From an uncultured Elusimicrobia bacterium (GTDB taxonomy: Bacteria; Elusimicrobiota; Elusimicrobia; 2-01-FULL-59-12): DNA of 64,000 nucleotides. The position numbers and the translations under genes were made by a program. This document shows positions 1,997 through 20,435 of the stretch, in pieces. The stretch is taken from NCBI GenBank assembly GCA_964506645.1, contig CAZDML010000001.1:12072-76071 (forward strand), given 5' to 3'. Below the pieces are notes generated by a model that saw only the letters and a program-made list of their open reading frames with translations, was not told the origin of the DNA and made no database searches. How positions within the stretch are numbered: the stretch's first letter is position 1; the number at the start of each line of letters is the position of its first letter.

Positions 1997-2500
1997 TTGA
2001 AAATGATTGAAATGAAACGTTATGGATTGTTATTGCCTGTCGCTTTAATTGCTTTGTCTGCCGGCTTACCCAGCGTTGCCGGCGCCCACGAAGCGAAATG
2101 CCCTTTTTGTGAATTGGATGTTGTCCAAAATACGCCTGATCAAGATAACGAAGTGGCGCTCCGCTATGGTCGTAAGAGAATTGAGTACCGGTGCGTCATG
2201 TGCGCCATCGCCGATGCCAAAACCTATGAGGGCAATATCACGATCTTGGCCCCCACTGAAATCAAAGGCAAACCTGCGCTCATCCATCGTGAAAACGGGT
2301 CCTGGCGTTCGGAACCGGACAACTTGGTCTTTATCGGCGAACGGGTGAAACATCGTCACTGTCAGATCGGCTATCGGGCATTTACGAGTCAGCCGGCAAT
2401 GGAATCGCATGTCAAAAAGAATAAGGTCATCCTAAAAGAAGGCAAAGCAATTACCCTCCCCGAGATGGTTAAGCTGGCCGAAAGTTACGCCAAGGAATAG
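1997..2500 (+). CDS. exported Cys/His-containing protein, hypothetical metal-binding
   Basis: Signal peptide MKRYGLLLPVALIALSAGLPSVAGA. CPFC...YRCVMC...KHRHC pattern. Homologous to the C-terminal ~130 aa of the next gene. Confidence 0.55.
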   Translation: MKMIEMKRYGLLLPVALIALSAGLPSVAGAHEAKCPFCELDVVQNTPDQDNEVALRYGRKRIEYRCVMCAIADAKTYEGNITILAPTEIKGKPALIHRENGSWRSEPDNLVFIGERVKHRHCQIGYRAFTSQPAMESHVKKNKVILKEGKAITLPEMVKLAESYAKE

Positions 2501-2502
2501 AT

Positions 2503-4071
2503 ATGAAGCGGGTGGGCCGACTTGGGATGGCGTGCGCCATCGTTGTTTTATCGCTAGGGACGTTGCCTGCTGAGGAAAAAATGACTCACATGCCGCCGGG
2601 CTCCGGGGTTAGCCGAACTCTGCCGCCATTACCCGAGAATCTTCCCGCATGGCTGACCAATCGCCGAAAAAATCACATCTTTTATAAGCAGGGCCGCTAC
2701 AACTTCGATATCTACAACATCCCTCGATTGGCCTACGACTTGAACGCCGTCGCGGTAGGCCATGCGATGGCCTACGAAGATCTGGTCACAGGGAAAGCTG
2801 CTACGCTCGACACTCGAACCTTTGATCGCATCAACTGGGTGCTGAAACATCCTCCGAAACTCATGCCCGATGAGGCGGCCATTTCGCCCACGTTTGGTCG
2901 CCTCTATGGGGTCTTGGAACAAGTCTTTGATTGGACGCACGTCCTTCATGCTCAAACTGTGGATGTCTTAGCCAGTACCCAGCTTACTCCCGAAGAAAAA
3001 GACCGAGAGATCGAAGCGTTGTGGACGTACTACGTGGAAAACGTACCGTATGCCGTCACGGGGCTGCCTATGAATATGGCTTTCCTGGATGGGCAGCCCT
3101 ACAGCATGGCGTTCCGCAAAAAATACCCCAAGGTGAATGGCCTCTTCTGGGGGTATCACTGGCTCCAGGGAGCCATGTACGACATGCTTTATGGCGCAAG
3201 CCGAGCGCAGCAGGAAAACGCTTATGAGGTGATGGGTGAACGCTATCACAGCATTGAGCTTTATCGAACAAATCGGCCCTTCATGCCCATGTTCGCTGAA
3301 ACAAGCCCCCAGTTTTCCCTGAAATATCCCCAACTCGCCAACGCCTTCGATAATCTGCACATGCTCCACGACATGGTCAACGACATTTTGGCATCGGATT
3401 GGATTTCAAATGATGATAAAGAGCGGCAAATCCGTCGCGCCATCTGGATCGTATCCGCTGAAGCCCACAAGGGCGAGAAACCGGGAGATGTGAAGGAAGA
3501 AAACGGCATGCACGATCATCGCTTTATGGCCGGGATGCCGGGCATGGGGCTCATGAAGCACGGAAATGAGGAAGTGATGTGGATGGACGGCATGGGGTGG
3601 ATGAGCATGGCCGATTGCCACCACTGCTCGATGGAGCTTCCTCAAGGGAAAGACGCTTGGAAAGCACCGACGGTCAGCGCGGACGGTTGGACAATGCGAG
3701 TTCGATGCCCTCTGTGTGCCAGAGATATGTCGGCTGAGACAAAAGGTCGGTCGATCCTTCATATCCCGACCGAAGATCCGCATAAGACTCTTTTGATCAT
3801 TTCCGACAAAGCGGGCAATCTGAAAACGGATAACGCGGCGGCCGTGTTTATTGAACAGGAAGGATCGCACCGCAAATGTCACCGCTGGTCGCAGGCGTTT
3901 AGTTCACGGGCAGTTTTTGATCGGTATGTGGCCGACCATCCCGAATTCAAAAACTGGAAAATCCTTTCATTCTCAGAATGGGCGGAGCAACACGGCAAGA
4001 AGCCCGACACCTACATAAAGCCGGTAGGTCCTCATGGGGTGGACAATCCTTATCAGATGGAGGCGATGTGA
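2503..4071 (+). CDS. exported protein with Met-rich segment and C-terminal CPxC/HRxC domain (hypothetical, Cu-binding candidate)
   Basis: Signal/lipobox-like N-terminus. MHDHRFMAGMPGMGLMKHGNEEVMWMDGMGWMSMADCHHC Met/His-rich stretch. C-terminal RCPLCARD...FIEQEGSHRKCHRW aligns with ORF 1997-2500. Confidence 0.6.
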   Translation: MKRVGRLGMACAIVVLSLGTLPAEEKMTHMPPGSGVSRTLPPLPENLPAWLTNRRKNHIFYKQGRYNFDIYNIPRLAYDLNAVAVGHAMAYEDLVTGKAATLDTRTFDRINWVLKHPPKLMPDEAAISPTFGRLYGVLEQVFDWTHVLHAQTVDVLASTQLTPEEKDREIEALWTYYVENVPYAVTGLPMNMAFLDGQPYSMAFRKKYPKVNGLFWGYHWLQGAMYDMLYGASRAQQENAYEVMGERYHSIELYRTNRPFMPMFAETSPQFSLKYPQLANAFDNLHMLHDMVNDILASDWISNDDKERQIRRAIWIVSAEAHKGEKPGDVKEENGMHDHRFMAGMPGMGLMKHGNEEVMWMDGMGWMSMADCHHCSMELPQGKDAWKAPTVSADGWTMRVRCPLCARDMSAETKGRSILHIPTEDPHKTLLIISDKAGNLKTDNAAAVFIEQEGSHRKCHRWSQAFSSRAVFDRYVADHPEFKNWKILSFSEWAEQHGKKPDTYIKPVGPHGVDNPYQMEAM

Positions 4072-4859
4072 TACAGCGCCTCAGCCGCTACTTTCTCGTT
4101 GCGTTTCTCGGCTTGGCAGTTCAGGCTGCTCATGCGGTTGATCACAACAATATCGATGCAGGGCGTCCCTTGAATTTTGATGATGCAGAAGCGATTGCTT
4201 ATCAGGAGCGTGCCGTAGAGTTCGGAGGGAAGTTCATTTCGCCTCATGAAAAATCGCCCGGAGCCGAAGGTGCACTCGAATTCCTGTACGGTTTTGCCAA
4301 AGATTCTCATGCCAGTCTCGATTTGGATCCTTCTTGGGGATCAAGAGCCGGCTCAGAAGAACGGCGTTTCGATGTCGGAAACGTTGCTGTCGGGCTCTTT
4401 CACAATTTCAATCGTGAAGTGCTGAATCTTCCTGCTTTTTCATTGCGTGGGGATGTATTTCTTCCAACGGGAAGAGATTCTTCGGGAACGGATGTGCGTC
4501 TGCGCGGAATTATGAGCAAAACGGTTCAACAGTATTCCAGGCTGCACCTCAACGTCGACAGTACCTTCGTGTCTGATCCGGATCCCGGAGAACGCAACGT
4601 CATTCCGGCATTGACTCTGGGGTGGTCCCGTCCTATCGGATATCCACGCGTTTTTACGAGAACGCTCGTGGCGGAAGCCGGTGTGCGCAGCGCCGAATCA
4701 AATGGGACGGGTCCGGTCGCTACCTTAGGCCTTGGTGTGCGTCAACAGATCACCGTTCGGTCTGTTCTGGATTTTGGTGTTCGCTCAGATGTCATTGGCG
4801 GCCGCTCAGCGCCGCGCAACGACGTTGAGGTGATCGCAGGATATTCCATCGGTTTTTGA
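4068..4859 (+). CDS. outer-membrane beta-barrel-like protein (hypothetical)
   Basis: GTG start at 4068 (GTGA overlap with upstream stop) gives the signal peptide MIQRLSRYFLVAFLGLAVQAAHA. Alternating amphipathic strands. C-terminal ...GYSIGF ends in Phe. Confidence 0.5.
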   Translation: MIQRLSRYFLVAFLGLAVQAAHAVDHNNIDAGRPLNFDDAEAIAYQERAVEFGGKFISPHEKSPGAEGALEFLYGFAKDSHASLDLDPSWGSRAGSEERRFDVGNVAVGLFHNFNREVLNLPAFSLRGDVFLPTGRDSSGTDVRLRGIMSKTVQQYSRLHLNVDSTFVSDPDPGERNVIPALTLGWSRPIGYPRVFTRTLVAEAGVRSAESNGTGPVATLGLGVRQQITVRSVLDFGVRSDVIGGRSAPRNDVEVIAGYSIGF

Positions 4860-4884
4860 ATATGGGCAAAAGGAGATTCTCTAA

Positions 4885-5937
4885 ATGAAACGGTTCGCAT
4901 TAATTCTGGTGATGTCTTTGAGTCTTTGGAGTACGGTGTGGGCTCATGGGGTTAAAGATCCGGTGTGTCGGATGGAGGTCGATACACATGCAACGGCGTA
5001 TGAGGGAGAGTTTCAGGGGCAGACGTATTATTTCTGCTCCTCAGCCTGTCAAAAGCGGTTCGAAACAACGCCTCAACAGTACGTGAAAACACTGGCTGAT
5101 TTATCGAAGAGCCCGAAAGCGTACGAAGTTCAAATCAAAACATCTAAAGAGCCTCTGGCTGGAAAGCCGGCCTCAATGACATTTACGGTGGTTTCGGGTA
5201 CTGAAAAAGCGCCGGTGAAAACATTCGAAGTGGTTCACGAACAACTCATGCACCTGGTTATGGTCAGTGAGGATCTGAACTGGTTTACTCATGAACACCC
5301 AACGCCAAAACCCGATGGAACGTTCGATTTCAGTGGGACTTTTCCTAATGGTGGGCGCTACTATTTATATACCGACTTCACCCCGGCCGACGGGGATAAC
5401 CAACTGATTCAATCTATATTGGACGTAAGCGGCAAGAGGAAACAAAAAGTTGATCTTGTCTCTGACTCTTCCTTTGAAAGGGCTGTTGACGGATATCGAG
5501 TCAATCTGGCTGTAGACCCGACGCCGCTTCAAGTTGAGAAAGCAGCAACGCTGACGTACTCGATTCGTGATTCGAAAGGAAACCCCATAACGGATATGGA
5601 ACCTTATCTCGGGGCGATGGGCCACCTGTTTGCCGTTCACCAAGGAGGCGCCGAAGTTGTTCATACGCATGCAACCTCGAAAACCTCATCTGAGGAGCAC
5701 GACCACTCCACGCATACGTCTGCACAAGTGAAAGAGCGAACCGGGCCCGATTTTTCATTCAAGCTCACCTTGCCGAAAGAGGGGCTCTATAAAATCTGGG
5801 CGCAATTCAGTCGTCAAGGCAAAACCCTGACCGTGCCTTTTGTTCTGGAAGCAAAACCTCTTTGGGAAAAAGCGTCTGCCAAAACAGGGTGCAACTGTGG
5901 ATGTAAGGACTGTCAGAAAAAGCATGCCGAAAATTGA
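4885..5937 (+). CDS. exported YHS/TRASH-domain protein
   Basis: Signal peptide, then VKDPVCRMEVDTHATAYEGEFQGQTYYFCSSACQKRFETTPQQY, a YHS (CxM...YYFCS..C) metal-binding domain. C-terminal CNCGCKDCQKKH. Confidence 0.65.
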   Translation: MKRFALILVMSLSLWSTVWAHGVKDPVCRMEVDTHATAYEGEFQGQTYYFCSSACQKRFETTPQQYVKTLADLSKSPKAYEVQIKTSKEPLAGKPASMTFTVVSGTEKAPVKTFEVVHEQLMHLVMVSEDLNWFTHEHPTPKPDGTFDFSGTFPNGGRYYLYTDFTPADGDNQLIQSILDVSGKRKQKVDLVSDSSFERAVDGYRVNLAVDPTPLQVEKAATLTYSIRDSKGNPITDMEPYLGAMGHLFAVHQGGAEVVHTHATSKTSSEEHDHSTHTSAQVKERTGPDFSFKLTLPKEGLYKIWAQFSRQGKTLTVPFVLEAKPLWEKASAKTGCNCGCKDCQKKHAEN

Positions 5938-6370
5938 CCTGATCGAAATCCACATGGCCTCAGCCCATTTTCCCATCGGGCTTCTTATGTCCAGCGCGCT
6001 TTTTGACGTGTTGGGCAGGTGGCTCAAGAAACCCGAGTTACGAATTACATCCTATTGGATTCATCTATTCGGCGTCGCCGCCGGTATGGGGACGTTGCTT
6101 TTGGGACTCATCGGAAATCCGTTCTTAGAGGATACGGGGTGGATTCCGCTCTTCTGGAAAGATTATGGGAATCCCATGACAGACAAGATGGCTCGCCATG
6201 CCTGGACAGGCCTCTTGAGTCTCTTAATCTTCGCTTTGTCGGCTTTATGGAGAGTACGAAAGCATGATGAGTTCACGAACGGACAAGCCGTTGTCTATTG
6301 GGCTGTGACATTTGTCTCCGTCGGACTCCTTGGACTTGCGGGATATCTGGGCGCCCATGTGATGGATTAA
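5924..6370 (+). CDS. small integral membrane protein (4 TM, DUF2231-like), hypothetical
   Basis: Start MPKIDLIEIHMASAHFPIGLL. Four hydrophobic helices. Overlaps the upstream gene by 14 nt. Confidence 0.5.
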   Translation: MPKIDLIEIHMASAHFPIGLLMSSALFDVLGRWLKKPELRITSYWIHLFGVAAGMGTLLLGLIGNPFLEDTGWIPLFWKDYGNPMTDKMARHAWTGLLSLLIFALSALWRVRKHDEFTNGQAVVYWAVTFVSVGLLGLAGYLGAHVMD

Positions 6371-6942
6371 TGCCAAAGAATAATCTGCCCCTAAAGCCCA
6401 TAGATGATCGTGTCGCTAAAGTCTTGCTGAAAAGCCGGGATCGGTTCGAGCGGTTTCTCACTCAACGCCTGAGAGACCCGGAGATCGCTCGGGATCTGCT
6501 CCAGGAAAGCCTGGTCCGCGCGATCACGAAGTCCCGGGGTCTACGGGATTCCGACCGCCTTGTCCCTTGGTTTTTCCAGATCCTCCGAAATGCCTTGATC
6601 GACTATTACCGAAATCACGCCGCACGAGTACGACGCGATGAAGCCTTTCTTCGCAGCCTGGAGGAGACTGAAACTCGGAAGGCAGCCGGTCGTCGAATGC
6701 AAGAAGCAGTTTGTTCCTGTATGTCCGGACTGTTGCCCTCCTTGAAACCCGAGTATGGAGATCTCATCCAGAAGGTGGATCTCGAAGAACGTTCTGTAAC
6801 CGAAGTGGCCAGGGCGATGGATCTTAAGCCCAACAACGTGATGGTGAAACTTCACCGAGCGCGCCAAGCCCTCAAGAAAAGCCTTGAGCGTGCCTGTGGG
6901 TCCTGCGCGGAGCACGGTTGCCTGAATTGTTTCTGCCGCTAG
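6370..6942 (+). CDS. ECF sigma factor with C-terminal cysteine-rich extension (CorE-like metal-responsive ECF)
   Basis: Region 2 (FERFLTQRLRDPEIARDLLQESLVRA...WFFQILRNALIDYYR) and region 4 (ERSVTEVARAMDLKPNNVMVKLHRARQAL). CSC in the linker (AVCSCMSG) and the tail CGSCAEHGCLNCFCR. Confidence 0.7.
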   Translation: MPKNNLPLKPIDDRVAKVLLKSRDRFERFLTQRLRDPEIARDLLQESLVRAITKSRGLRDSDRLVPWFFQILRNALIDYYRNHAARVRRDEAFLRSLEETETRKAAGRRMQEAVCSCMSGLLPSLKPEYGDLIQKVDLEERSVTEVARAMDLKPNNVMVKLHRARQALKKSLERACGSCAEHGCLNCFCR

Positions 6943-7017
6943 TGTAAGGTTTGATCGGTCTGCTTCGTCTCCTAGGGTGTAAGGGCGATGCCCTTCCGCT
7001 ATAAAAAGGAGATATTT

Positions 7018-9411
7018 ATGAGCGAATCGTGCTGCAGTGTCAAAGAAAAAGAGCAGTCTTGCTGCAAAGGAAACCAGTCTGTTATGGATCACTCGCATCA
7101 CACTTTAGTCAAGCCGACGGTCAAGGACCCGGTTTGTGGAATGGATGTCCACCCGGATGATGCTGGCGGCGGCAGCTATTCCTATAAGAACCAGACTTTT
7201 TACTTTTGCAGCCCGAGCTGCCGTGAGAAGTTCAAGAAGCACCCGGTAAAGTACGTTGCCGAGTCAAGGCCTTCGGCACCCGCAACCTCGGATGCCGCAA
7301 TCTATACCTGTCCCATGCATCCGGAGGTCCGCCGGCAGGGCCCCGGCTCCTGTCCGATCTGTGGGATGGCGCTTGAGCCGGTAATCGTTACGGCAGAAGA
7401 GCAGCCAAACCACGAGCTCATCGATATGACACGGCGCTTTTGGACAAGCGCGGCTTTGTCAGCTCCGTTGTTTGTAATGGCCATGGCTGAGATGTTTATG
7501 GGGCAGGGTTCCAGTCATTTTTTCTCCAGTACATGGGCGAGTTGGATTCAGGTTGCCTTGGCAACGCCGGTTGTGTTGTGGGGCGGCCGGCCGTTTTTTG
7601 TTCGCGGTTGGGCTTCCATCGTGAACCGCAGCCCGAACATGTTTACCTTGATTGCGTTGGGGACCGGAGCGGCCTACCTTTATAGTCTCATAGCCATCTT
7701 GTTTCCCGGGTTGTTTCCGGAATCATTTCGAGGGCATGGCGGTCGGATCGGGCTTTATTTTGAGGCTGCTGCCGTCATCACAACCCTGGTGTTATTGGGG
7801 CAGGTGCTCGAACTGCGCGCTCGGCAACAGACTTCTGGCGCGATCAAAGCGCTTCTCGGCTTATCTCCCAAGACGGCGCGTCGCGTAAACCCCGATGGGT
7901 CGGAAGAAGAAATTTCGTTAGAACAGGTTCACGTCGGTGATATCCTGAGAATCCGTCCCGGCGAAAAGATCCCGGTCGATGGCGTCGTAACAGAAGGTTC
8001 GAGCTCCGTTGATGAATCCATGATCAGCGGCGAGCCCATCCCCGTAGAGAAGAAGGCCGGGGACCGAGTGACGGGCGCAACGATGAATGGGACGGGCAGT
8101 CTCCTGATGCGAGCCGAACGCGTAGGTCAGGAAACGCTCCTGGCACAAATCGTCCAAATGGTCAGCCAGGCGCAGCGAAGCCGCGCGCCCATCCAGAGGC
8201 TCGTCGATGTTGTTTCTTCCTATTTTGTACTGGTTGTGCTCGCGGTGGCTGTTCTTACCTTCGTTGTCTGGGCTCTATGGGGTCCTGAGCCGAGGATGGC
8301 ACACGCCCTCGTTAATGCCGTGGCAGTCCTTATCATCGCCTGTCCTTGCGCTCTGGGCCTAGCCACTCCAATGTCGATCATGGTCGGTACCGGCAAGGGT
8401 GCCACCGCCGGTGTCTTGATCAAAAACGCCGAGGCGCTCGAGATCATGGCCAAGGTCGATACACTTGTGGTGGATAAGACCGGAACACTGACCGAGGGCA
8501 AGCCTCGCCTCACCACCATCGTTCCGCTCGAACCGTGGTCAGAAACCGATTTCTTGCGACTTGCGGCCAGCGTTGAACAAGCCAGTGAGCATCCGCTAGC
8601 CGCCGCGATTGTTCAAGGAGCACAGCAGAAAGAAATTGTTCTTTCCAAAGCGAGCCGTTTTGAATCGGTGACTGGAAAAGGAGTCCGAGGTGTCGTGGAA
8701 GGCAAGGTTGTGACCATGGGGAACGCCAAATTCGTCGGCGATTGGAGCGGCTCCGCTGAAACACTCCGGAATAAAGCTGAAGAATTCAGACGCGAAGGCC
8801 AAACGGTCATATTCGTAACAGTGGACGAAAAGCCGGCAGGAATTTTAGGCGTCTCTGATCCGATCAAGACAACGACGCCGGAAGCCATTCGGCAACTTCA
8901 CGCTGAAGGAATTCGCGTTGTCATGCTGACCGGCGACAATAAGACAACAGCCGAGGCGGTCGCAAAGAAGTTATCGATTGATGAGGTGGAGGCGGACGTC
9001 CTGCCCGATCAAAAAGGCGAAAAAGTGAAGAAGTTTCAAGCCGCCGGCCACATTGTGGCGATGGCGGGAGACGGCATCAACGACGCGCCGGCACTCGCAC
9101 AGGCGCAGGTAGGAATCGCCATGGGAACCGGGACAGACGTGGCCATGGAAAGCGCAGGCGTGACGCTCGTCAAAGGCGACCTTCGCGGCATCGCGAAGGC
9201 GCTACGTCTTAGCCGCGCCACCATGCGAAACATTCGGCAAAACCTGTTCTTCGCATTCATCTACAACGTCCTTGGCATTCCCATAGCGGCGGGTGTTCTC
9301 TACCCCTTCTTTGGCTTGCTTTTGAGTCCGATGATCGCCAGCGCCGCGATGAGTTTGAGTTCCGTTTCAGTGATTGCGAATGCTCTTCGACTTCGGAAAG
9401 TAGCGCTTTGA
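7018..9411 (+). CDS. copA: copper-translocating P1B-type ATPase with N-terminal YHS/TRASH metal-binding domain
   Basis: AAGGAG RBS 7 nt before ATG 7018. YHS ([10 protein letters not shown]...[12 protein letters not shown]), [27 protein letters not shown]...GIP..AG and M..SS Cu(I) signature motifs. Confidence 0.9.
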
Positions 9412-9467: not shown

Positions 9468-9725
9468 ATGCGTAAGTGGATTTTCCTTGCCTTGACTGTA
9501 TTCGTGCTTTCCGATGCTTGGGCTGATGCCAAAGAAGCGGGTTGCATGGATCATGCCTGCCCTCAAGCCTGTCATAGCGTCTGCCAGACGCATCTCACAG
9601 CTGATAAAGCCCCGGCTGTAGCTGTTGTTATGCCTCCTGTACACGGAATCGTCGTGGGTGACGTGCAAATGCCGCGACAGCTTTTCGTTAAATTCCTCTT
9701 CCGGCCTCCTAAAGCTTCCGTCTAA
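9468..9725 (+). CDS. small exported Cys/His-cluster protein (hypothetical metal-binding)
   Basis: MRKWIFLALTVFVLSDAWA signal, then CMDHACPQACHSVCQTH (4 Cys and 3 His in 17 aa). Confidence 0.45.
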   Translation: MRKWIFLALTVFVLSDAWADAKEAGCMDHACPQACHSVCQTHLTADKAPAVAVVMPPVHGIVVGDVQMPRQLFVKFLFRPPKASV

Positions 9726-9807: not shown

Positions 9808-11058
9808 ATGAATCGATTTATTGCTTTGCTATTTCTGTTCGTTTTAAGCGCTCCCACTGTTCACGCGGAAAGCGCGACATATACATTGGCCGACCTTGTG
9901 GTGCGGGCAAAACGCAACGCTCCGCTGGTCGCCGCACAACAGTCTCGTGTCGAAGAAAAACGGCTTTCCGCTATTCAGGCGCGGACCTGGCCCGGTCTGT
10001 CTATAGACGTTGCCGGTGGGCAACGCAAACAAGGTGAGGAATCGGGGCCCCGATTCGAAGCCGCCATCCGGCAACTTTTGCCGCTTTTAGGAAAAGAACG
10101 ATTAGGCGGCGCCTTGCTCGGGCTGGAATCAGAGCTCTGGCAGCGGCGCGTGTCGCTTTCCGAGGCCGCGCTTACACAGCAGGTGATCCAGTTGGCCTAC
10201 GACTATACAACCGATAAGCGTAAGGCCGATTTCACACAGGACCGCCGCAAGCGTTTTGAGTTGCTGGAAGCTTACATGGCAGGACGGGTGTTCGCTTCGC
10301 CGCAACGTAAAACAGAGATTCGTATTGTTCGCAACCGTCTAAATAATCTGAAGGCGGATGCCATACAGACCGCGGCCGATAAGAAAGCCGCCTTCGAAGC
10401 TTTGCAGGTTTTCGTGCCATTGGATGCCCCCGGTGAACCTGCTATTGAAACGCCATGGCTAAAAGGAACGTCTCCACTCCTTGCGGAACCGTTACTGGCT
10501 AAGGCCAACGAGCGAAACGCCGATCTTCTTGCTCAGAAATCCGCAGTGGAAGCGTCTCAAATCGAACAAACTCTGGCCCGGAGAAACCGGTGGCCGGATC
10601 CTTCTTTGATTGTCTCCTACGATCAGGCCAAGGCGGCCGATACGGAAAAGAATTACGGACTTGGCCTTGGGCTAGCGCTTCCAGCTTGGAACGGAAATCG
10701 CGCCGCGATCAAGAGCTTGGAGATAAGGAAAACAGCGGAAGAACGGCTTCTCGCGTACCAGAAGCAGCAGGTCTCCGCTGAGCTGGCTAGGGCGCTGAAC
10801 GCCTATGAAGCCGCCAGGCAGAAGGTCCAGACATACTCCCCGAAAACCATCGAAGAGTTATCCGCCCAACTTCAAGAGACCGAAGCAGGATTTCGCAAAG
10901 GCCAGGTGGATCTATTGACGTTCCTCGAGTTGGATGGATCGGCGGCAGATTTATTTGCGCAGGTTGTTGATGCGCAGTTGGCGCTCGTCAGCGCTTTGAA
11001 CGAAATATGGCGTTTGAGTGGTGAGCAGAATGTGCTCGATCAGCTCGGATCTTATTAG
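9808..11058 (+). CDS. outer-membrane efflux factor (TolC/CzcC family)
   Basis: Signal peptide MNRFIALLFLFVLSAPTVHA. Two coiled-coil repeats. N-terminal LADLVVRAKRNAPLVAAQQSRVEE... is typical of OMF proteins. Sits 9 nt upstream of the RND gene. Confidence 0.8.
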   Translation: MNRFIALLFLFVLSAPTVHAESATYTLADLVVRAKRNAPLVAAQQSRVEEKRLSAIQARTWPGLSIDVAGGQRKQGEESGPRFEAAIRQLLPLLGKERLGGALLGLESELWQRRVSLSEAALTQQVIQLAYDYTTDKRKADFTQDRRKRFELLEAYMAGRVFASPQRKTEIRIVRNRLNNLKADAIQTAADKKAAFEALQVFVPLDAPGEPAIETPWLKGTSPLLAEPLLAKANERNADLLAQKSAVEASQIEQTLARRNRWPDPSLIVSYDQAKAADTEKNYGLGLGLALPAWNGNRAAIKSLEIRKTAEERLLAYQKQQVSAELARALNAYEAARQKVQTYSPKTIEELSAQLQETEAGFRKGQVDLLTFLELDGSAADLFAQVVDAQLALVSALNEIWRLSGEQNVLDQLGSY

Positions 11059-11067
11059 GAGACCTTT

Positions 11068-14000
11068 ATGAACCGATTAATGCAGTGGACGCTGAAAAAC
11101 CGACTCACCGTCATTCTCTTTTTCGCACTGGCCTCAGGCCTTGGCTTTTATTCCATGGGCCATCTCGCGATTGATGCAGTTCCCGAGATCACGCCGGTGC
11201 AGGTCATGGTCAATACGAAAACAGGGGCGCTGGATCCGGAGCAGATTGAAAAGACCGTTACGTTCCCGATTGAGACGGACATGAGCGGTATTGCGCATGT
11301 CAAAGAAGTTCGGTCGCTTTCTAAATACGGATTGTCCCAGGTCATTGTCATCTTCATGGACGGCACAGATATTTACTGGGCCAGACAGCAAATCTCTGAA
11401 CGGTTGCAAGGCATCCGCGGCGAAATCCCGGACGGTCTCACGCCAACACTCGCCCCGATTTCAACGGGCTTAAGCGAAATCGTCATGTATACCCTGCTTC
11501 CTAAGAAAGGGACTGACTTAGCGGCAAAACCCGAAAAAGATCGCTTACTCTATCTTCGGACGCTGCAGGATTTTGTCGTTGCCCCCTACCTCAAACGATC
11601 CGTGAAAAATGTCGCCGAAGTCGACACCACCGGCGGATTCAAGAAAGAAATCCATATCGAAATTCACCCCGAACGACTAGACGACTACGGTCTAAGCATG
11701 GAGCAAGTCGCAGAACGACTTGAAGGGCTTGGGGAGAACGTCGGCGGAGGCTACATTCAACCCAAGGGCCGTCAAATCATTGTCCGCGCGTCGGGCCGGT
11801 TGATGAACTTAGATGAAATACGCAACCTTCCGGTGAAGCTGGATGTCGGTGGGCGAGCGGTTCCGCTATCGCGGATCGCAGATGTGCGGGACGATTATAC
11901 GCCGCGCATGGGCGGCGCGACGGTCGATGGGGAAGAAGCGGTACTTGGAACGGTCTTGATGCTATCGGGCGCCAACTCTCGGGAAGTGTCGCTGGATGCC
12001 GAGGCCGCTTTAAAAGAGGCTCCTTTGCCCGAGGATGTGGAAATCCAGCTCCTTTATACGCGAAGTTTTCTCGTCAATGCGACGCTCAAAACGGTATCTA
12101 AGAGTCTCTTGGAAGGCGCGGCGCTTGTGATCGTGGTTCTGCTCCTGATTCTAGGGAACGTCCGCGCGGCGCTCCTGGTCTCTCTGGCCATTCCGCTTTC
12201 GATGCTATTCGGAGCGATCGGAATGAAGTGGTTCGGCCTCTCCGCCAGCCTCATGAGCCTCGGAGCTATCGACTTCGGCCTCTTGGTGGATGGCGCTGTC
12301 GTCATGATTGAGAACTCGCTTCGCCGCTTGGAAGAGCATCGCGGGGCACTAACGAAAGAAGCCAAGCTTGCGTTGATTTTGGATGCCGCTCAAGAAGTGG
12401 TCAAGCCGGTGACGTTGGGCTTGGCCATCATCATGCTGGTCTATGTTCCCATTCTTTCCTTAGAAGGTATCGAAGGAAAGCTATATCACCCCATGGCGAT
12501 GACCGTCATTATGGCGCTCGGCGCATCGCTCTTGGTCGCGGTGCTCTTAATGCCCGTAGTGGCCTATCTCTACCTTAAAGCTCCGTCGTCCGGCCATGTC
12601 CAGGAGACGCGATTCTTTCTGCTCTTGAAGAAGGTGTATACCCCGGTGTTGGATTGGGGCTTGCGCCACCGGGCGTTGACCGTCACGCCGACGGTGCTTT
12701 TGTTTATCGGCGCATTATGGGTATTTCACAGGATGGGGGCCGATTTTATGCCGCCTTTGGATGAAGGCGATTTAGTCGTCAATCTGACTCGGGCCTCCGA
12801 TATCGGTGTTGACGCATCGCTTGCCATGCAGCGAACGAGCGACCGCATTTTGGCCGAATTCCCGGAAGTGGAGCGAGTGTTTTCTCGGATCGGAACACCT
12901 GAGTCGGCGACGGATCCCATGGGAGTCCATTTATCCGATACCTTCGTGATGCTGAAAAAAGATCGATCCGCTTGGCCGGTTGCACCGGACGGCAAAAAAA
13001 GAACGAAAGCCGATCTTTATGAAGCGATGAAAAAGGCTCTCGAGGAAAAGACGCCGGAACAAGAGGTCAATGAGAATCAGCCGATCGAAATGCGCTTCAG
13101 CGAAATTCTCGAAGGCAGCCGTGCCGATGTGACGCTGCGAATTTACGGCAAGGACCTGGATACGTTGATCGGTCTTTTGAACCAGTCCATCGACGTTTTG
13201 AAAGAGATTCCTGGCGTTGATGAGGTGGAAATGGATGCTCTGACGGCATTGCGGAAAAGCCCGGTTCTGACCGCGCGGCCCAATTACGCGGCCATTGCAC
13301 GATACGGCCTCGACATTCACCGCGTGACCCGGCTCTTGGAAGTCGCCATGGGCGGTAAAGAAGTTGGCAGCTTTTATGAAGAGCAATGGCGTTTTCCAAT
13401 TGTGATGCGCGTCGAAGAGGAACATCGTGAAAACATCGACACGATTAAATCGCTCCCGGTAGGATTACCTGACGGTGGAACAATTCCATTGAAGGATGTG
13501 GTGGACTTCAAGCTGCAGGATGAGGTCACTACGATCGCGCATGATTATTCTCAACGCTATGCAGCGATTGCCATATTTCTAAAAGGGCGCGATATCAGCA
13601 GTTTTGTAAAGGACGCCCGCGAAGCCATTGATGCCAAGTTGAAAGTTCCGGATGGTTACCGAATCAGTTGGGGCGGCCAATTTAAAAATCTTGAACGTGC
13701 GAAGCGTCGACTAGCACTCATTGTGCCGGTCATTCTCATTGCCATCTTCTTGATTCTATGGAAAGCCTTCGGCGTCATGCGCCAGGCAGTTCTTGTCTTC
13801 ACGACAATTCCGCTGGCGATGACGGGCGGTATTTTTGCTTTGGCGCTGCGCGACATCCCAATGAGCGTATCGGCTTCTGTCGGTTTCATTGCCCTAATGG
13901 GTATCGCGATCTTAAATGGCATGGTGCTCGTCACATTCTTCAATCAACTACGGCAAAAGGGAATGGATGCCACCCAGTCAGCTCGTGAAGGAGCGCTTGT

Positions 14001-14220
14001 TCGTTTGAGGCCTGTGGCCATGACGGCGCTTGTCGCTAGCCTGGGGTTTGTGCCGATGGCGCTGAATACAGGTATCGGCGCCGAAGTCCAGCGGCCGCTC
14101 GCAACGGTCGTGATCGGAGGATTGATCACCTCGACTTTGCTGACGCTGGTCGTCCTTCCGGTGGTTTATCCGTGGCTCGGAAAGAAGTGGAAAGAGGAAG
14201 AAGAGGAGGTCGAGTTATGA
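11068..14220 (+). CDS. heavy-metal efflux RND inner-membrane pump (CzcA/CusA family)
   Basis: 1050 aa, 12-TM RND architecture. N-terminal MNRLMQWTLKNRLTVILFFALASGLGFY...AIDAVPEITPVQVMV aligns with CusA/CzcA. Confidence 0.9.
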   Translation: MNRLMQWTLKNRLTVILFFALASGLGFYSMGHLAIDAVPEITPVQVMVNTKTGALDPEQIEKTVTFPIETDMSGIAHVKEVRSLSKYGLSQVIVIFMDGTDIYWARQQISERLQGIRGEIPDGLTPTLAPISTGLSEIVMYTLLPKKGTDLAAKPEKDRLLYLRTLQDFVVAPYLKRSVKNVAEVDTTGGFKKEIHIEIHPERLDDYGLSMEQVAERLEGLGENVGGGYIQPKGRQIIVRASGRLMNLDEIRNLPVKLDVGGRAVPLSRIADVRDDYTPRMGGATVDGEEAVLGTVLMLSGANSREVSLDAEAALKEAPLPEDVEIQLLYTRSFLVNATLKTVSKSLLEGAALVIVVLLLILGNVRAALLVSLAIPLSMLFGAIGMKWFGLSASLMSLGAIDFGLLVDGAVVMIENSLRRLEEHRGALTKEAKLALILDAAQEVVKPVTLGLAIIMLVYVPILSLEGIEGKLYHPMAMTVIMALGASLLVAVLLMPVVAYLYLKAPSSGHVQETRFFLLLKKVYTPVLDWGLRHRALTVTPTVLLFIGALWVFHRMGADFMPPLDEGDLVVNLTRASDIGVDASLAMQRTSDRILAEFPEVERVFSRIGTPESATDPMGVHLSDTFVMLKKDRSAWPVAPDGKKRTKADLYEAMKKALEEKTPEQEVNENQPIEMRFSEILEGSRADVTLRIYGKDLDTLIGLLNQSIDVLKEIPGVDEVEMDALTALRKSPVLTARPNYAAIARYGLDIHRVTRLLEVAMGGKEVGSFYEEQWRFPIVMRVEEEHRENIDTIKSLPVGLPDGGTIPLKDVVDFKLQDEVTTIAHDYSQRYAAIAIFLKGRDISSFVKDAREAIDAKLKVPDGYRISWGGQFKNLERAKRRLALIVPVILIAIFLILWKAFGVMRQAVLVFTTIPLAMTGGIFALALRDIPMSVSASVGFIALMGIAILNGMVLVTFFNQLRQKGMDATQSAREGALVRLRPVAMTALVASLGFVPMALNTGIGAEVQRPLATVVIGGLITSTLLTLVVLPVVYPWLGKKWKEEEEEVEL

Positions 14221-14546
14221 AAGAGATCAAAGCGATCATTCAGCCCCAAGTGCTGGATCAGGTATTAGAGGCCCTCCACGCCGTGCCCGGCATCCCCGGC
14301 TGCACGGTATCCCGTGTTGAAGGCTATGCGCGGAGTTCCAACAAGGAAGGAGATGGACGTATGGCCACGTCAGCCGAGCGAGTGAAACTTGAGTTGGTCG
14401 TTCCAGATAAAATGGTCGAGAAAATAGTTGGGCTGATTCATGTCAATGCCAAAACGGGACACAAAGGAGACGGCAAGATTTTCATCATCGAAACAAAAGA
14501 TGCGCTGGCCATTCGCACCGGTGAGCGAGGCGAAAAGGCACTATAG
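14217..14546 (+). CDS. PII-like protein of the PII-NG group (GlnB fold, no T-loop Tyr)
   Basis: MKEIKAIIQPQVLDQVLEAL...GDGKIFIIETKDALAIRTGERG matches the PII fold. ATGA overlap with the RND stop. Confidence 0.75.
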   Translation: MKEIKAIIQPQVLDQVLEALHAVPGIPGCTVSRVEGYARSSNKEGDGRMATSAERVKLELVVPDKMVEKIVGLIHVNAKTGHKGDGKIFIIETKDALAIRTGERGEKAL

Positions 14547-15605: not shown

Positions 15606-18600
15606 ATGCTGAATGCAGTTATTCGATTTTCTCTACGTTATCGCGCCGCCGTCCTGCTGGCGGCGACGGGTCTCCTCATCTATGGTTTCGCTGTTTGGCG
15701 AAATCTGCCCGTTGACGTCTTCCCAGACCTTAATCGGCCAACGGTCACCGTTTTGACGGAAGCCCACGGTCTGGCACCGGAGGAAGTTGAGACTCTGGTC
15801 ACGCTACCGATTGAATCGGTCTTAAACGGCACGCCTGGCGTCATCCGCGTCCGTTCCTCGAGCGGAATCGGCATCTCGATCCTTTATGTCGAGTTTGAGT
15901 GGGGGACCGACATCTTTCGCAACCGCCAACTCGTGTCGGAACGTTTGCAGCTGGCCAAGGAGCGCCTGCCGGATGAAATGACGCCTGTAATGGGGCCGAT
16001 CACCTCTATCATGGGTGAAATCCAGTTTGTCGGCATGACCTCGCCCGAAGGAACCATCTCCCGCATGGATTTGCGTACGATCGCCGATTGGCAGCTGCGC
16101 CCACGACTGATGTCTATTCCCGGCATCAGCCAAGTCGTTGTCATGGGCGGAGAAGTGAAGCAATACCAAATTCTGATCAATAGCGACGCTTTGCAGCGGC
16201 GCGGGATTTCCCTGGACAACTTAAAGCACGCACTCTCGCACTTGAGCGAGAACACCACGGGCGGCTTTATCGATGTCGACGACAAAGAGCTGCTGATTCG
16301 GCCGCTCGGACGACTTGAGTCCGTGGAGGACATACGTAACGCTTCGGTGGGCATGCATCTTGGAAAACCTGTCCTCGTTAAGGAGGTTGCCGAAGTGCGG
16401 ATCAGCGCCAAAACCAAGCGCGGAGAGGCCAGCGTGAACGCGCGTCACGCGGTGGTGATGACGATTCAGAAACAACCGAACGCCGACACCATCAATCTGA
16501 CCCGGCGGATTGATGAGACGTTGGCAGAGATGCAGAAAACTCTGCCGGCAGGCGTCGAGATCCTGAGCGATCTCTTCAAACAATCTCGCTTCATCGAGGC
16601 CGCTAATCACAACGTGATCGCGGCGTTGCGGGACGGCGCGATTATCGTCAGCATTATCCTTTTCCTGTTTTTAGCGAACGTCCGAACCACCGCCATCACA
16701 CTGATTACGATTCCCTTGTCGCTCATGGTCACGGCGATCGTTTTTCACGCGATGGGATTAGGCATCAACACGATGACCCTCGGAGGGCTGGCGGTGGCCA
16801 TCGGCGAACTGGTGGACGATGCCATTGTGGATGTCGAGAATGTATTCCGCCGTCTGCGTGAGAACCGCCTCGCCGGATCGCCGAAAGGGATCTTGCGCGT
16901 GGTCTTTGAGGCATCCTCCGAAGTACGCAACTCCATCATTATTTCGACGCTCATCGTAGTCCTGGTATTTATTCCGCTCTTTTTCCTGAGCGGTATCGAA
17001 GGACGTCTTTTTGCTCCGCTGGGGGTCGCCTATCTGGTTGCGCTTAGCGCCTCACTCGTCATATCCCTGACTGTTACGCCGGCTCTATGCTCTCTGCTCC
17101 TCGGCAAATCGAAAACGATTGAACGAGAAGAAGAAAGCTGGCTTGTCCGCCGACTCAAAGTGCTCCACCGCCGAGGTCTGGCGATCACGCTGGACCATCC
17201 TTACTTTATTCTCGGTGGCTCTTTTGCACTCCTTGTAGGTTCGCTTTGCCTTTTGCCTCTCATGGGAAAGACCTTCCTGCCTCCCTTTAATGAAGGCACC
17301 GCGACTATTGGGATAGCAGCGCCTCCCGGGATTTCATTAGCCGCCTCCGATGAGCTGGGTCGGAAGGCCGAAGAGGCGATGCTGTCCATCCCAGAGGTGA
17401 AGTCCACCATTCGCCGCACGGGGCGAGCGGAGATGGACGAGCATGCCGAAGGGGTTCACTGGAGCGAAGTCGATGTGGACTTCAAACCTTCAGGACGCCC
17501 CCGCCGGGTTGTGCTTCAGGAACTGCGCGAGAAAATTGAAAAGGTCGGCGACGTATATGTGAACGTGGGGCAACCGATCAGCCATCGGTTGGACCATATG
17601 CTCTCGGGTGTTCGCGCTCAAGTGGCGATTAAAATCTTCGGTCCGGACCTCTCCGAGCTTCGTCGATTGGCCACCCAGACGGAAACGATTCTGAAAGGTA
17701 TTCGGGGCGTCGTTGATCTTGCAGTCGAACCGCTCGTTCTCATCCCACAGCTCAAAATCGCCATGGACCATGAAGCGGCGGCGCGGGTGGGCCTGCGTTC
17801 CGGTGCGCTGGCGGAAGACCTTGAGATGGCCCTCAACGGCGAGGCCGTCTCCCAGATTCTCGAAAAGCAACGAATCTTCGATTTGTTCATGCGCCTGGAT
17901 GATCGTTCCAGGCAATCGCCGGAAGCCATCGAGAAGGTCCTGGTTAAAACACTACCGAACGGGCAAGGCGTGCGAGTGGAAGATGTGGCCAACGTCTACC
18001 AAGGCACAGGACCCAACATGGTCAATCGCGAGGATCTGCAGCGCCGAATCGTCGTATCCGCCAACGCGCATGGCCGCGACCTTGGAAGCCTCGTGGATGA
18101 GATTCGATCCAAGCTGGATGCCGGTGTAAAGTTCCCCACGGGATATTTTGTGAACCTGGGGGGACAGTTTGAGAGTCGGCGGGAAGCATCCAGAAAATTG
18201 TTGCTCTTCGGATTTTTGTCGCTTGCGGCAATCGTACTGGTGCTATACATGCATTTCCGGTCACTCGTCCTCGTGCTCCAAATCATGTTGAACGTGCCGC
18301 TGGCTTTAATAGGCAGCATCGTGGCCATTTATCTCACTGAGCGTGAGCTCTCAGTCGCCACATTGATCGCTTTCATAACGCTATGCGGCATCAGCAGCCG
18401 CAACGGCATCATGATGATCAGCCATTACATCCATCTCATGGTAGAGGAAGACGAGTCTTTCAGCCGCGACATGGTGATACGCGGCTCGCTTGAACGTTTA
18501 GTGCCGGTTCTCATGACGGCGCTCACCGCTGCTTTGGCGCTGGTACCGCTCGTTCTATCCAAGGGGGAGCCGGGCAAAGAAATCCTCTATCCGGTGGCGG

Positions 18601-18746
18601 TCGTCATTATCGGCGGTTTATTTTCTTCGACGCTGCTCGATATCGCCGTGACGCCGGCGATCTTTTACCTTTTCGGACGCAAACCCGCAGAGCGCCTGGT
18701 CGCTTTGCGGAAAGAATCCAAAACAACACAAGGAGAATGGAAATGA
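15606..18746 (+). CDS. heavy-metal efflux RND inner-membrane pump, second copy (CusA/CzcA family)
   Basis: 1046 aa. MLNAVIRFSLRYRAAVLLAATGLLIYGFAVWRNLPVDVFPDLNRPTVTV... has the CusA-like signature. Confidence 0.9.
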   Translation: MLNAVIRFSLRYRAAVLLAATGLLIYGFAVWRNLPVDVFPDLNRPTVTVLTEAHGLAPEEVETLVTLPIESVLNGTPGVIRVRSSSGIGISILYVEFEWGTDIFRNRQLVSERLQLAKERLPDEMTPVMGPITSIMGEIQFVGMTSPEGTISRMDLRTIADWQLRPRLMSIPGISQVVVMGGEVKQYQILINSDALQRRGISLDNLKHALSHLSENTTGGFIDVDDKELLIRPLGRLESVEDIRNASVGMHLGKPVLVKEVAEVRISAKTKRGEASVNARHAVVMTIQKQPNADTINLTRRIDETLAEMQKTLPAGVEILSDLFKQSRFIEAANHNVIAALRDGAIIVSIILFLFLANVRTTAITLITIPLSLMVTAIVFHAMGLGINTMTLGGLAVAIGELVDDAIVDVENVFRRLRENRLAGSPKGILRVVFEASSEVRNSIIISTLIVVLVFIPLFFLSGIEGRLFAPLGVAYLVALSASLVISLTVTPALCSLLLGKSKTIEREEESWLVRRLKVLHRRGLAITLDHPYFILGGSFALLVGSLCLLPLMGKTFLPPFNEGTATIGIAAPPGISLAASDELGRKAEEAMLSIPEVKSTIRRTGRAEMDEHAEGVHWSEVDVDFKPSGRPRRVVLQELREKIEKVGDVYVNVGQPISHRLDHMLSGVRAQVAIKIFGPDLSELRRLATQTETILKGIRGVVDLAVEPLVLIPQLKIAMDHEAAARVGLRSGALAEDLEMALNGEAVSQILEKQRIFDLFMRLDDRSRQSPEAIEKVLVKTLPNGQGVRVEDVANVYQGTGPNMVNREDLQRRIVVSANAHGRDLGSLVDEIRSKLDAGVKFPTGYFVNLGGQFESRREASRKLLLFGFLSLAAIVLVLYMHFRSLVLVLQIMLNVPLALIGSIVAIYLTERELSVATLIAFITLCGISSRNGIMMISHYIHLMVEEDESFSRDMVIRGSLERLVPVLMTALTAALALVPLVLSKGEPGKEILYPVAVVIIGGLFSSTLLDIAVTPAIFYLFGRKPAERLVALRKESKTTQGEWK

Positions 18747-19189
18747 AACAGCTAATACTCATAGGAAGTCTCTTGCTGGCGACGCTCAGCTTTGCCCATG
18801 ACGAAGGGCACGGTCCAAAACTGACGGATTCGCCGAAGCAGGGCGGCGTCGTTGCGCCGGTCATCGACGCGAAAGAAGCGAAGCTCGGGGCTAAAGCCAC
18901 GTTGCTTTACAAAGCCGAACTCGTGCGTCTGGATGACGGCACCGTCCGGGTTTATCTCTACGATCAAGCGATGAATCCGTTGTCGCTTGAGGCCTTGAAT
19001 CCGACTGCTCAGGGAGTTCTTGAAACGTGGAAAAAGAAGACAGCCACGCGAAAACCATTTGAGCTCAAGAAGGAATCGGACGCATTTGTAGGACAAGCAC
19101 CGAAGGCGACCGCCAAACCCTTCAACATCGACGTCACGTTCCAGGAAAAGGGCCGAAAATTGTTGGCGGCTTTCGACAACCTTGACTAA
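18743..19189 (+). CDS. small periplasmic protein in the 'adaptor' position between RND and OMF (hypothetical)
   Basis: AAGGAG plus 7 nt to ATG 18743. Signal peptide MKQLILIGSLLLATLSFA. Starts HDEGHGPK. 148 aa, too short for a canonical membrane-fusion protein. Confidence 0.5.
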   Translation: MKQLILIGSLLLATLSFAHDEGHGPKLTDSPKQGGVVAPVIDAKEAKLGAKATLLYKAELVRLDDGTVRVYLYDQAMNPLSLEALNPTAQGVLETWKKKTATRKPFELKKESDAFVGQAPKATAKPFNIDVTFQEKGRKLLAAFDNLD

Positions 19190-20435
19190 ACAGCCCCTCA
19201 GCATCGTAGTCGCTCTGTTCTTAGGCGTCAGTACGGCGCTTCGGGCGGATGAGCTCAGGCTCACCGCTGAAAATCTGCCGCAGATGGTGAGGGAGCGACA
19301 TCCGGCGCTGAAAGCTTCAGAGCGCTTGGTGCAGGCCGCAAAAATGCGGACCGGCTTCTGGCGACGATCCATGAATCCGCATTTGAACGTGACGTTGGGC
19401 GGCGAACGCTATGAAACCGGTCCGTATGCCGCGGAGACGCAGCCCTATGCGTTGGGCGAGGCAGCCATCAACGTGTTTCGAGGCGGCAAGGATCGTCTGG
19501 AAGATGTCCAGCGGCAAGCCTACGTGAAAATCGCCGAAGCCGAACATGAAACGCTTTTCCGTGAAGAGCTGGAGAAGGTTCGCCGCTTCTACTGGCAGTT
19601 CGTCGCCGAGCAAGAGCGGATGGTCCACATTGATGCGCTGTTGGAACAGGGAAAGCGCATTCGCCAGGCCGCGGAGCGGCGTGTCGCCAAAGGACTGACA
19701 ACCGATACGGACGTCCTGGCGGTTGATCTCTACAACCAGCAACTGGAGGAAGAAAAGAAGAGCTCCCTCAATGAAATGAGACTGAGTCATATTGCGCTTC
19801 AAGCCCCATTGAACATCTCTTCGGGAACCGTGATAACAACAGAAGGTCGCATCCCACATGAGCGTGTTGAAAATGCCCAACGGAACAATGCGGATATCCC
19901 GTCGGTGGTTCGCCTTCAGGCGCAGCGGGAAATCAATGAAAGCCAGCGGGCCCAATGGTCGCGCTGGTGGGCTCCGGAACTTGATTTCTATGGTCAGTAC
20001 GGGCTTTACACAAGACGTGACCGAGATTTTTCGCAGCGGAGTGATCGGGTCGATTGGGCGGCGGGCTTGCGCGCCCGGTTTTCTCTCTTCGATGGAGGAA
20101 ATTCCCTACAGGAAGCCAAATCCTCCAAGCAGCAGGCGGCGGCGTACGGCGAACTCGCCGCTTATCGTGAACGCGCATTCGACGCGGATGTGGAAACAGC
20201 TCTTCAGAAGATGCGGAATCTGGACGATCTCATTCATGGATCTGAGATATTCCTCGAGCGCGGGGAAAAGCTCCTACGGCAAACCTTAAGCGAATACGAC
20301 CGCGGTGTGCGGGACTCCCAAGAGGTTCTGGCCGCCTTAGATCGGCTGGCCGTTTTCCAACGCCGGCATCTCGAACGCCGGTTGGAGTATCAGAACACCA
20401 AAACTCACTGGCAGGCACTTACAGGAGGGCAATAA
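19182..20435 (+). CDS. outer-membrane efflux factor (TolC family), second copy
   Basis: Signal peptide. Two-repeat coiled-coil organisation typical of OMF. Overlaps the upstream stop. Confidence 0.75.
   Translation: MTKQPLSIVVALFLGVSTALRADELRLTAENLPQMVRERHPALKASERLVQAAKMRTGFWRRSMNPHLNVTLGGERYETGPYAAETQPYALGEAAINVFRGGKDRLEDVQRQAYVKIAEAEHETLFREELEKVRRFYWQFVAEQERMVHIDALLEQGKRIRQAAERRVAKGLTTDTDVLAVDLYNQQLEEEKKSSLNEMRLSHIALQAPLNISSGTVITTEGRIPHERVENAQRNNADIPSVVRLQAQREINESQRAQWSRWWAPELDFYGQYGLYTRRDRDFSQRSDRVDWAAGLRARFSLFDGGNSLQEAKSSKQQAAAYGELAAYRERAFDADVETALQKMRNLDDLIHGSEIFLERGEKLLRQTLSEYDRGVRDSQEVLAALDRLAVFQRRHLERRLEYQNTKTHWQALTGGQ

Follow-up and report, generated by a model that had tools for sequence, protein, structure and literature searches.

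A CorE-like sigma factor with a minimal cysteine-rich tail and a predicted target promoter in front of copA in a probable Elusimicrobiota-like host

CorE-type regulators have been described since 2011 and covered in repeated reviews, and a linkage of this family of extracytoplasmic function (ECF) sigma factors to copper genes has already been reported (PMC3107203, Fig. 9B). Four cysteines in the C-terminal tail are common to all members, namely, residues 181, 184, 192, and 194 in the numbering of CorE from Myxococcus xanthus (PMC3107203). Cys189 is the main activation residue of CorE and was found in only about half of the members originally described. In both CorE and CorE2, a CxC motif was demonstrated to be essential by mutagenesis (PMC4937300). 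The copper-responsive CorE carries Ala185 where the cadmium- and zinc-responsive CorE2 carries Cys174, and a swap of this one residue exchanges their specificity (PMC4937300; PMC6851896). The four-gene operon that contains corE2 is not induced by metal; the cadmium-induced, CorE2-dependent unit comprises the two genes just downstream (PMC4937300). Here, we analyzed a sigma factor gene of this type that is situated immediately upstream of copA in a 64,000-nucleotide stretch of contig CAZDML010000001.1, referred to below as the window. We consider it likely that its product is a CorE-type factor which carries its own metal sensor, fires the copA promoter, and does not require an anti-sigma factor.

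The two sigma domains of the protein scored above their Pfam cutoffs (Table 1). The Pfam scan returned no domain in addition to these, with neither sigma-3 nor sigma-1 being detected. A CSC motif lies between the two domains, and the protein ends in a Cys-rich tail that reads C176-G-S-C179-A180-E-H182-G-C184-L-N-C187-F-C189-R190. An earlier note, made from the letters of this DNA, had described an ECF sigma factor with regions 2 and 4, a CSC in the linker, a Cys-rich C-terminal extension, and a CorE-like architecture, and this description held in every part. A homolog search of 5.8 billion proteins at an E value of 1e-5 or less yielded 664 matches. The nearest of them were metagenomic proteins of 92%, 69%, and 66% identity, and the named matches included many Myxococcus proteins. 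In an alignment of 119 homologs, which ranged from 39 to 91% in overall identity, C115, C117, C176, C179, H182, C184, C187, and C189 were all invariant. Since this invariance extends across such a range of identities, the cysteine pattern is not due to chance. The residue between the last two cysteines, F188 (6931 to 6933), is unique to the window protein in this set; 107 of the homologs have serine or threonine at this position, with serine in the 92% identical protein (P0001). In an AlphaFold2 model based on the 119-sequence alignment, the tail was predicted with low confidence. A profile search of the PDB retrieved generic ECF sigma factors only (SigL, SigH, SigE, and SigW), and none of them covered the tail.

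The closest characterized relative is a cluster of 18 proteins (P0083), which is 46% identical to the window sigma factor over 95% of the query (E 1e-44). Its named members are all from Myxococcus, mostly from M. xanthus. Cysteines 113, 115, 174, 177, 182, 185, and 187 and Ala178 of this cluster match C120, C122, C181, C184, C189, C192, and C194 and A185 of CorE with a constant offset of +7. Adding the same offset to its length of 204 residues gives 211, which fits the published 38-residue Cys-rich domain of CorE. Based on the Myxococcus membership, the constant offset, and the matching length, we took P0083 to represent CorE. The alignment with the window protein is ungapped in this part, so that CorE residues C120, C122, C181, C184, A185, C189, C192, and C194 fall on C115, C117, C176, C179, A180, C184, C187, and C189, respectively. 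The four cysteines common to all CorE-like members are therefore present (C176, C179, C187, and C189), as is the equivalent of the activation residue Cys189 (C184). At the position of Cys174, by which the cadmium- and zinc-responsive CorE2-type subgroup is recognized, the window protein has Ala180. Its best NCBIfam match was SigZ, but the scores remained below the equivalog cutoffs (82.5 versus 168.65 bits for TIGR02959 and 86.4 versus 212 bits for NF007215). SigZ has also been placed in ECF238 (PMC7826278). Because every sequence feature by which the literature defines ECF44 is present, the window protein is, judged by its sequence, a member of the CorE-like family ECF44, now within ECF238. 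The earlier note had regarded assignment to a group with a separate anti-sigma factor and no conserved Cys-rich domain as contrary to its proposal. Instead, the Cys-rich domain is conserved, and Pfam detected no anti-sigma domain in the two open reading frames (ORFs) adjacent to the sigma gene, which encode a DUF2231 protein and CopA.

The sigma stop codon (TAG) and the ATG of copA at 7018 are separated by a spacer of 75 bp. A predicted promoter starts at the base right after the TAG, with a predicted transcription start at about 6975 to 6978. Alignment of this spacer with those from the loci of three close relatives (L084, L001, and L085, with sigma identities of 92, 69, and 66%, respectively) revealed one conserved block, TGTAAGGTT-(N)-CGTCTCCTA, which extends from the base after the stop codon, while the remainder of the spacer diverges. 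Its form is that of an ECF promoter: the -35 element is AAC-like, the -10 element is CGT, and 16 to 17 nt separate AAG from CGT. In the window, TGTAAGG-N16-CGTC (6943 to 6969) is the only site with zero mismatches, and GTAAGG-N15-18-CGTC occurs once (6944 to 6969). Sites with one or two mismatches were found at chance frequency, with 12 observed and 12 expected when up to two mismatches were allowed. A one-mismatch copy, TGCAAGG-N16-CGTC, is located on the minus strand (9436 to 9410), oriented antisense to copA and into its 3' end. One such copy is no more than chance would give, and the TGTAA that it lacks is retained at almost all other sites.

The same motif recurs beside related sigma genes. 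For this comparison, we used a set of 85 related loci, 80 from genomes and 5 from metagenomic contigs. Sites with no more than one mismatch numbered 79 in these loci, compared with a mean of 35.6 after shuffling, and were concentrated beside the sigma genes. A relaxed motif, TGTAA-N2-N15/16-CGT[CT], was present on the same strand within 200 bp past the sigma stop codon in 44 of the 85 loci, where we estimate that about 0.3 would be expected by chance. In the Nitrospira locus L014, where copA does not come next after the sigma gene, the motif precedes a 196-aa ORF and homologs of two window proteins of 522 and 293 aa. Because the motif stays with the sigma gene even in such a case, it tracks the sigma factor rather than the pump. 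Several Myxococcus and Corallococcus loci have it directly upstream of copA at a distance of 1 to 2 kb from the sigma gene. The CorE-family literature examined contained no description of the motif, which may be recorded in the ECF Hub. Many of the family promoters contain a third conserved element, GGGTGAA(G/A)G, 5 to 6 nt past CGTCT. It is present in the window (6975 to 6985) as well as in L001, L085, L015, L056, L081, and others, and it may represent the start-site region or a second operator.

Relatives of the sigma factor are widespread. More than 531 species in the GTDB species genomes possess one, and the phyla among the matches listed include Nitrospirota, Myxococcota, Bdellovibrionota, Planctomycetota, Verrucomicrobiota, Gemmatimonadota, Methylomirabilota, and Acidobacteriota, among others. 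In 41 of the 85 loci, a homolog of CopA, with an alignment of 300 aa or more, was encoded within 6 kb of the sigma gene, a count that is a lower bound since many contigs end early. It was downstream on the same strand in 30 of these and divergent in 6. Together with the family-specific ECF-type promoter in the 75-bp spacer, the recurrent order of sigma gene and copA supports the proposal of the earlier note that a switch is placed in front of copA. Beyond the window, we lean, by a narrow measure, toward the view that a common promoter grammar, cTGTAAG(G/A)-N15/16-cCGTCT, in many cases with GGGTGAA after it, is shared by CorE-like sigma factors in many phyla. They would also have a common layout: the sigma factor does not control its own gene, whose stop codon is followed within tens of bases by the target promoter. 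If true, the regulon of any CorE-like member could be read directly from sequence, and a role in copper handling would be implied for uncharacterized proteins such as the pair of 522 and 293 aa (2503 to 4859 of the window).

Behind the predicted promoter lies a gene for a copper pump. Pfam identified a YHS domain (42.1 bits; cutoff, 30.3), an HMBD domain (51.6 bits), and the E1-E2_ATPase and Hydrolase (HAD) domains, and the N terminus contains a CC..CC/His-rich stretch. The product scored 616 bits against TIGR01511, the model for copper-translocating P-type ATPases (cutoff, 397 bits). Its translation displays the transmembrane motifs CPC, NX6YNX4P, and MX2SSX5N, which we take to be the signatures of P1B-1 ATPases specific for Cu(I)/Ag(I). 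The score against the equivalog model of Escherichia coli-type CopA (NF007952) was below the cutoff (682 versus 1,316 bits), consistent with the differing YHS/HMBD N terminus. The earlier note was thus right to place a YHS-domain CopA directly downstream of the sigma gene; its start at 6988 was refined by 30 nt. The sequence makes ATG 7018 the more likely start codon, as it is preceded by the ribosome-binding site AAGGAG and as the resulting N terminus, MSESCC, is conserved in L084 and L001. ATG 6988 is located within the loop of a small hairpin, about 12 nt past the predicted transcription start. This perfect hairpin, AAGGGC-GAT-GCCCTT (6981 to 6995), lies in the predicted copA leader; L084 has it too, whereas L001 and L085 do not. 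The gene for a small secreted Cys/His-rich protein that directly follows copA is probably cotranscribed with it.

From these features, we propose the following mechanism. The sigma gene would close the upstream operon and be transcribed with it, independently of metal. No copy of the promoter motif was found upstream of the sigma gene or of the operon to which it belongs, and its expression is for this reason probably constitutive. The linker cysteines C115 and C117 would coordinate a metal ion, most likely copper, jointly with C176, C179, H182, C184, C187, and C189 of the tail. Only the metal-bound form would be competent to direct RNA polymerase to TGTAAGG-N16-CGTCTCC. Firing of this promoter would drive copA, probably also the gene for the small periplasmic protein rich in Cys and His, and perhaps the downstream genes for outer membrane efflux proteins (OEP) and resistance-nodulation-division (RND) pumps, thereby raising Cu(I) export above the basal level that results from read-through. 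Metal binding, the identity of the metal as copper, and independence from an anti-sigma factor are suggested by the genetics of CorE and CorE2. The window adds support for all three: Ala180 is present, the pump is of the Cu(I) type, and no partner gene is conserved.

A sensor of the same architecture could respond to a different metal, either cadmium or zinc as in CorE2 or else silver or another thiophilic metal, which we regard as unlikely. CorE-like tails do differ in their specificity, which a single residue can switch (PMC4937300), the phenylalanine at position 188 sets this tail apart, and the metal island also contains a cation diffusion facilitator (CDF) transporter (21860 to 22789) and two RND pumps. 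At position 180, though, the window protein has the alanine of CorE and not the cysteine of CorE2. The homologs have alanine (67), threonine (38), or serine (14) at this position and cysteine in none of the 119. Cysteine was also absent from the equivalent position in all of 86 genome loci, for which the scan pattern recovered proteins of the A, T, and S types only, and for this reason cysteine versus alanine could not be matched to the type of the neighboring transporter. Relatives with A, T, or S at position 180 all adjoin CopA homologs. Furthermore, the pump encoded behind the predicted promoter is of the P1B-1 Cu(I)/Ag(I) type and is neither a zinc- or cadmium-type P1B-2 ATPase nor a CDF transporter.

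Less probable again is that the Cys/His cluster holds structural zinc or forms disulfides and that the protein is a thiol-redox sensor resembling ZAS domains, on which copper would act indirectly. Seven invariant cysteines and one histidine could make a zinc site, a resemblance to the ZAS motif has been noted in reviews (PMC6851896), and the activity of CorE depends on the redox state of copper (PMC3107203). Against this stands the linkage to CopA and copper genes, whose consistency (41 of 85 loci) favors a metal-specific over a general redox function.

The explanation that survives least well is a conventional ECF sigma factor with a purely structural Cys tail, held by the coupled DUF2231 protein or by an unlinked anti-sigma factor: although the stop codon of the DUF2231 gene overlaps the sigma start codon in the manner usual for sigma/anti-sigma pairs and the island harbors a ZAS-type anti-sigma factor (981 to 1430), the latter follows a sigma gene of its own (1 to 567), the DUF2231 protein has no anti-sigma domain and is not conserved beside relatives, and overexpression and deletion tests of CorE and CorE2 yielded no anti-sigma factor, with removal of the tail inactivating instead of activating the protein (PMC3107203, PMC4937300). 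The overlap consists of 1 nt shared by the sigma ATG and the TAA of the DUF2231 gene. A DUF2231 gene is also situated beside an identical sigma gene in L086. In L084, where the sigma factor is 92% identical, an unrelated membrane protein is encoded upstream in its place, and tblastn detected no DUF2231 homolog in any of the 85 related loci. Because of this replacement and the lack of homologs, DUF2231 is not a conserved partner, and we rejected it both in this role and as an anti-sigma factor. It may be an accessory protein.

Several observations weigh against the proposed self-sensing switch in its simplest form. The window begins with a canonical ECF sigma gene, cut by the window edge and lacking a Cys tail, which is followed by genes for a zf-HC2 (ZAS-type) membrane anti-sigma factor and a Metal_resist/LTXXQ periplasmic protein (1423 to 1941). 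The first two form a separate regulatory pair, and the copper island thus holds two different ECF systems. Located 5 kb upstream in the same island, this pair could contribute to the regulation of copA, which may therefore have more than one input. As no terminator was found between the sigma gene and copA, the latter also receives read-through from upstream. In the CorE2 system, a coexpressed lipoprotein influences signaling; by analogy, the coupled DUF2231 protein could be accessory to the sigma factor, and the term "one-component" may oversimplify. In L024, which of all the loci most resembles that of M. xanthus corE, a search for the promoter motif found no copy. We therefore do not equate the motif with the published CorE box (Figure S3, PMC3107203) or with promoters that CorE has been demonstrated to use. 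Finally, we infer metal binding and metal-dependent transcription of the window sigma factor by analogy.

Table 1. Coordinates and supporting evidence for the features of the sigma-copA region in the window
Feature	Position	Strand	Evidence or remark
DUF2231 membrane protein	5924..6370	+	PF09990; coupled in translation with the sigma gene
CorE-like ECF sigma factor gene	6370..6942	+	190 aa; ORF list, Pfam, homology to the CorE cluster
Sigma-2 domain (residues 24-84)	6439..6621	+	PF04542 Sigma70_r2, 36 bits (cutoff, 24), E 6e-9
Linker CxC motif C115-S116-C117, between the two sigma domains	6712..6720	+	Equivalent to CorE C120/C122; in 119/119 homologs
Sigma-4.2 region (residues 121-168)	6730..6873	+	PF08281 Sigma70_r4_2, 32.4 bits (cutoff, 25.7), E 7e-8
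Cys-rich tail CGSCAEHGCLNCFCR (residues 176-190)	6895..6939	+	Five Cys and the His invariant in homologs
Predicted copA promoter: -35 TGTAAGG (6943-6949), 16-nt spacer, -10 CGTCTCC (6966-6972)	6943..6972	+	Conserved block, motif scans
copA ribosome-binding site AAGGAG	7006..7011	+	Read from the sequence
copA, Cu(I)/Ag(I)-exporting P1B-1 ATPase	7018..9411	+	Pfam, NCBIfam, transmembrane motifs
Small secreted Cys/His-rich protein, 85 aa, with signal peptide and motif CMDHACPQACHSVCQTH	9468..9725	+	Directly after copA; no Pfam family

Upstream of copA, the plus strand carries a tightly packed series of genes (1997 to 6942) for a 167-aa CxxC protein (1997 to 2500), a 522-aa protein (2503 to 4071), a 293-aa protein (4068 to 4859), a 350-aa YHS protein, the DUF2231 protein, and the sigma factor. 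The 522-aa and 293-aa proteins belong to no Pfam family. Their homologs are encoded directly downstream of a CorE-type promoter in five Nitrospira loci, L014 (6686 to 9029), L022, L036, L039, and L066. The 167-aa protein shares homology (E 7e-7) with the 522-aa protein, namely with its C-terminal CxxC...CxxC domain. All three are candidate copper-regulon proteins. In the 55-bp gap before the gene for the 167-aa protein, the sequence CGTCTCC (1946 to 1952) is identical to the -10 block of the copA promoter. We rejected it as a CorE-type promoter since no TGTAAG-like -35 element is present at 15 to 17 nt; it may be a promoter of the other ECF sigma factor.

Two pairs of OEP and RND (AcrB-family) genes are located downstream of copA (9808 to 14546 and 15606 to 20435), with no recognizable membrane fusion protein among the neighboring ORFs tested. 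The first pair is followed by a gene for a P-II family protein (14214 to 14546). The locus L003 is similarly arranged, with OEP, RND, and NTP-transferase/CDP-alcohol-transferase genes. On the minus strand, a polyphosphate kinase gene (57539 to 59593) was identified whose best named relatives are proteins of Elusimicrobiota metagenome-assembled genomes, with 58 to 63% identity, which tentatively points to an Elusimicrobiota-like source of the window.

The window sigma factor is a genuine but ordinary member of the CorE family, and biologically, it only extends a known type of regulator to another lineage. What goes beyond prior knowledge is the probable host lineage, which we assign tentatively, the minimal tail, and the family-wide promoter motif just past the sigma stop codon. 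Its tail comprises about 15 residues, and a piece of 3 kb holds the predicted promoter that it targets as well as the one obvious output gene, which makes it a clean minimal self-sensing sigma factor. It should be a convenient system for the study of metal coordination through the CxC motif and tail, of metal specificity, and of structure, as the PDB holds no CorE-like structure. It could also serve as a compact part for copper biosensors.

Among the known systems, SigZ of Bacillus subtilis (ECF238 subgroup 9; TIGR02959/NF007215) resembles the window sigma factor in that the alignment runs into the Cys tail and that no anti-sigma factor is known for it. According to the literature, SigZ, unlike the window protein, has two C-terminal cysteines only, and the CxC motif is missing from most ECF238 members that did not belong to the former ECF44. 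CorE2 of M. xanthus (MXAN_5263, ECF238s15) belongs to the same family and shares the CxC motif and the Cys-rich tail. Its genetic layout is also similar: the sigma gene is distal in a metal-independent operon, the gene for a membrane protein or lipoprotein is coexpressed upstream, and a metal-induced, sigma-dependent efflux gene lies immediately downstream, an arrangement of induction and dependence that is presumed for the window. CorE2 differs in having Cys174 at the specificity position, in responding to cadmium and zinc, and in targeting a CDF transporter and not a P1B-1 ATPase. CorE itself (MXAN_3426, the founder of ECF44) likewise consists of sigma-2 and sigma-4.2 regions only, with a CxC in the linker, a tail of the form CxxC-A-x-H-G-C-x-x-C-x-C, alanine at the specificity position, and Cys189, to which the window protein has an equivalent. 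It is also associated with a P1B copper ATPase, with copA and copB in its regulon, and has no linked anti-sigma factor. Unlike CorE, whose 38-residue domain includes a sixth cysteine (C206), the window protein has a minimal tail that ends one residue past the last cysteine. Its predicted target promoter directly adjoins the sigma stop codon, with none seen upstream and no sign of even the partial autoregulation reported for CorE, and its host is Elusimicrobiota-like, whereas that of CorE belongs to the Myxococcota.

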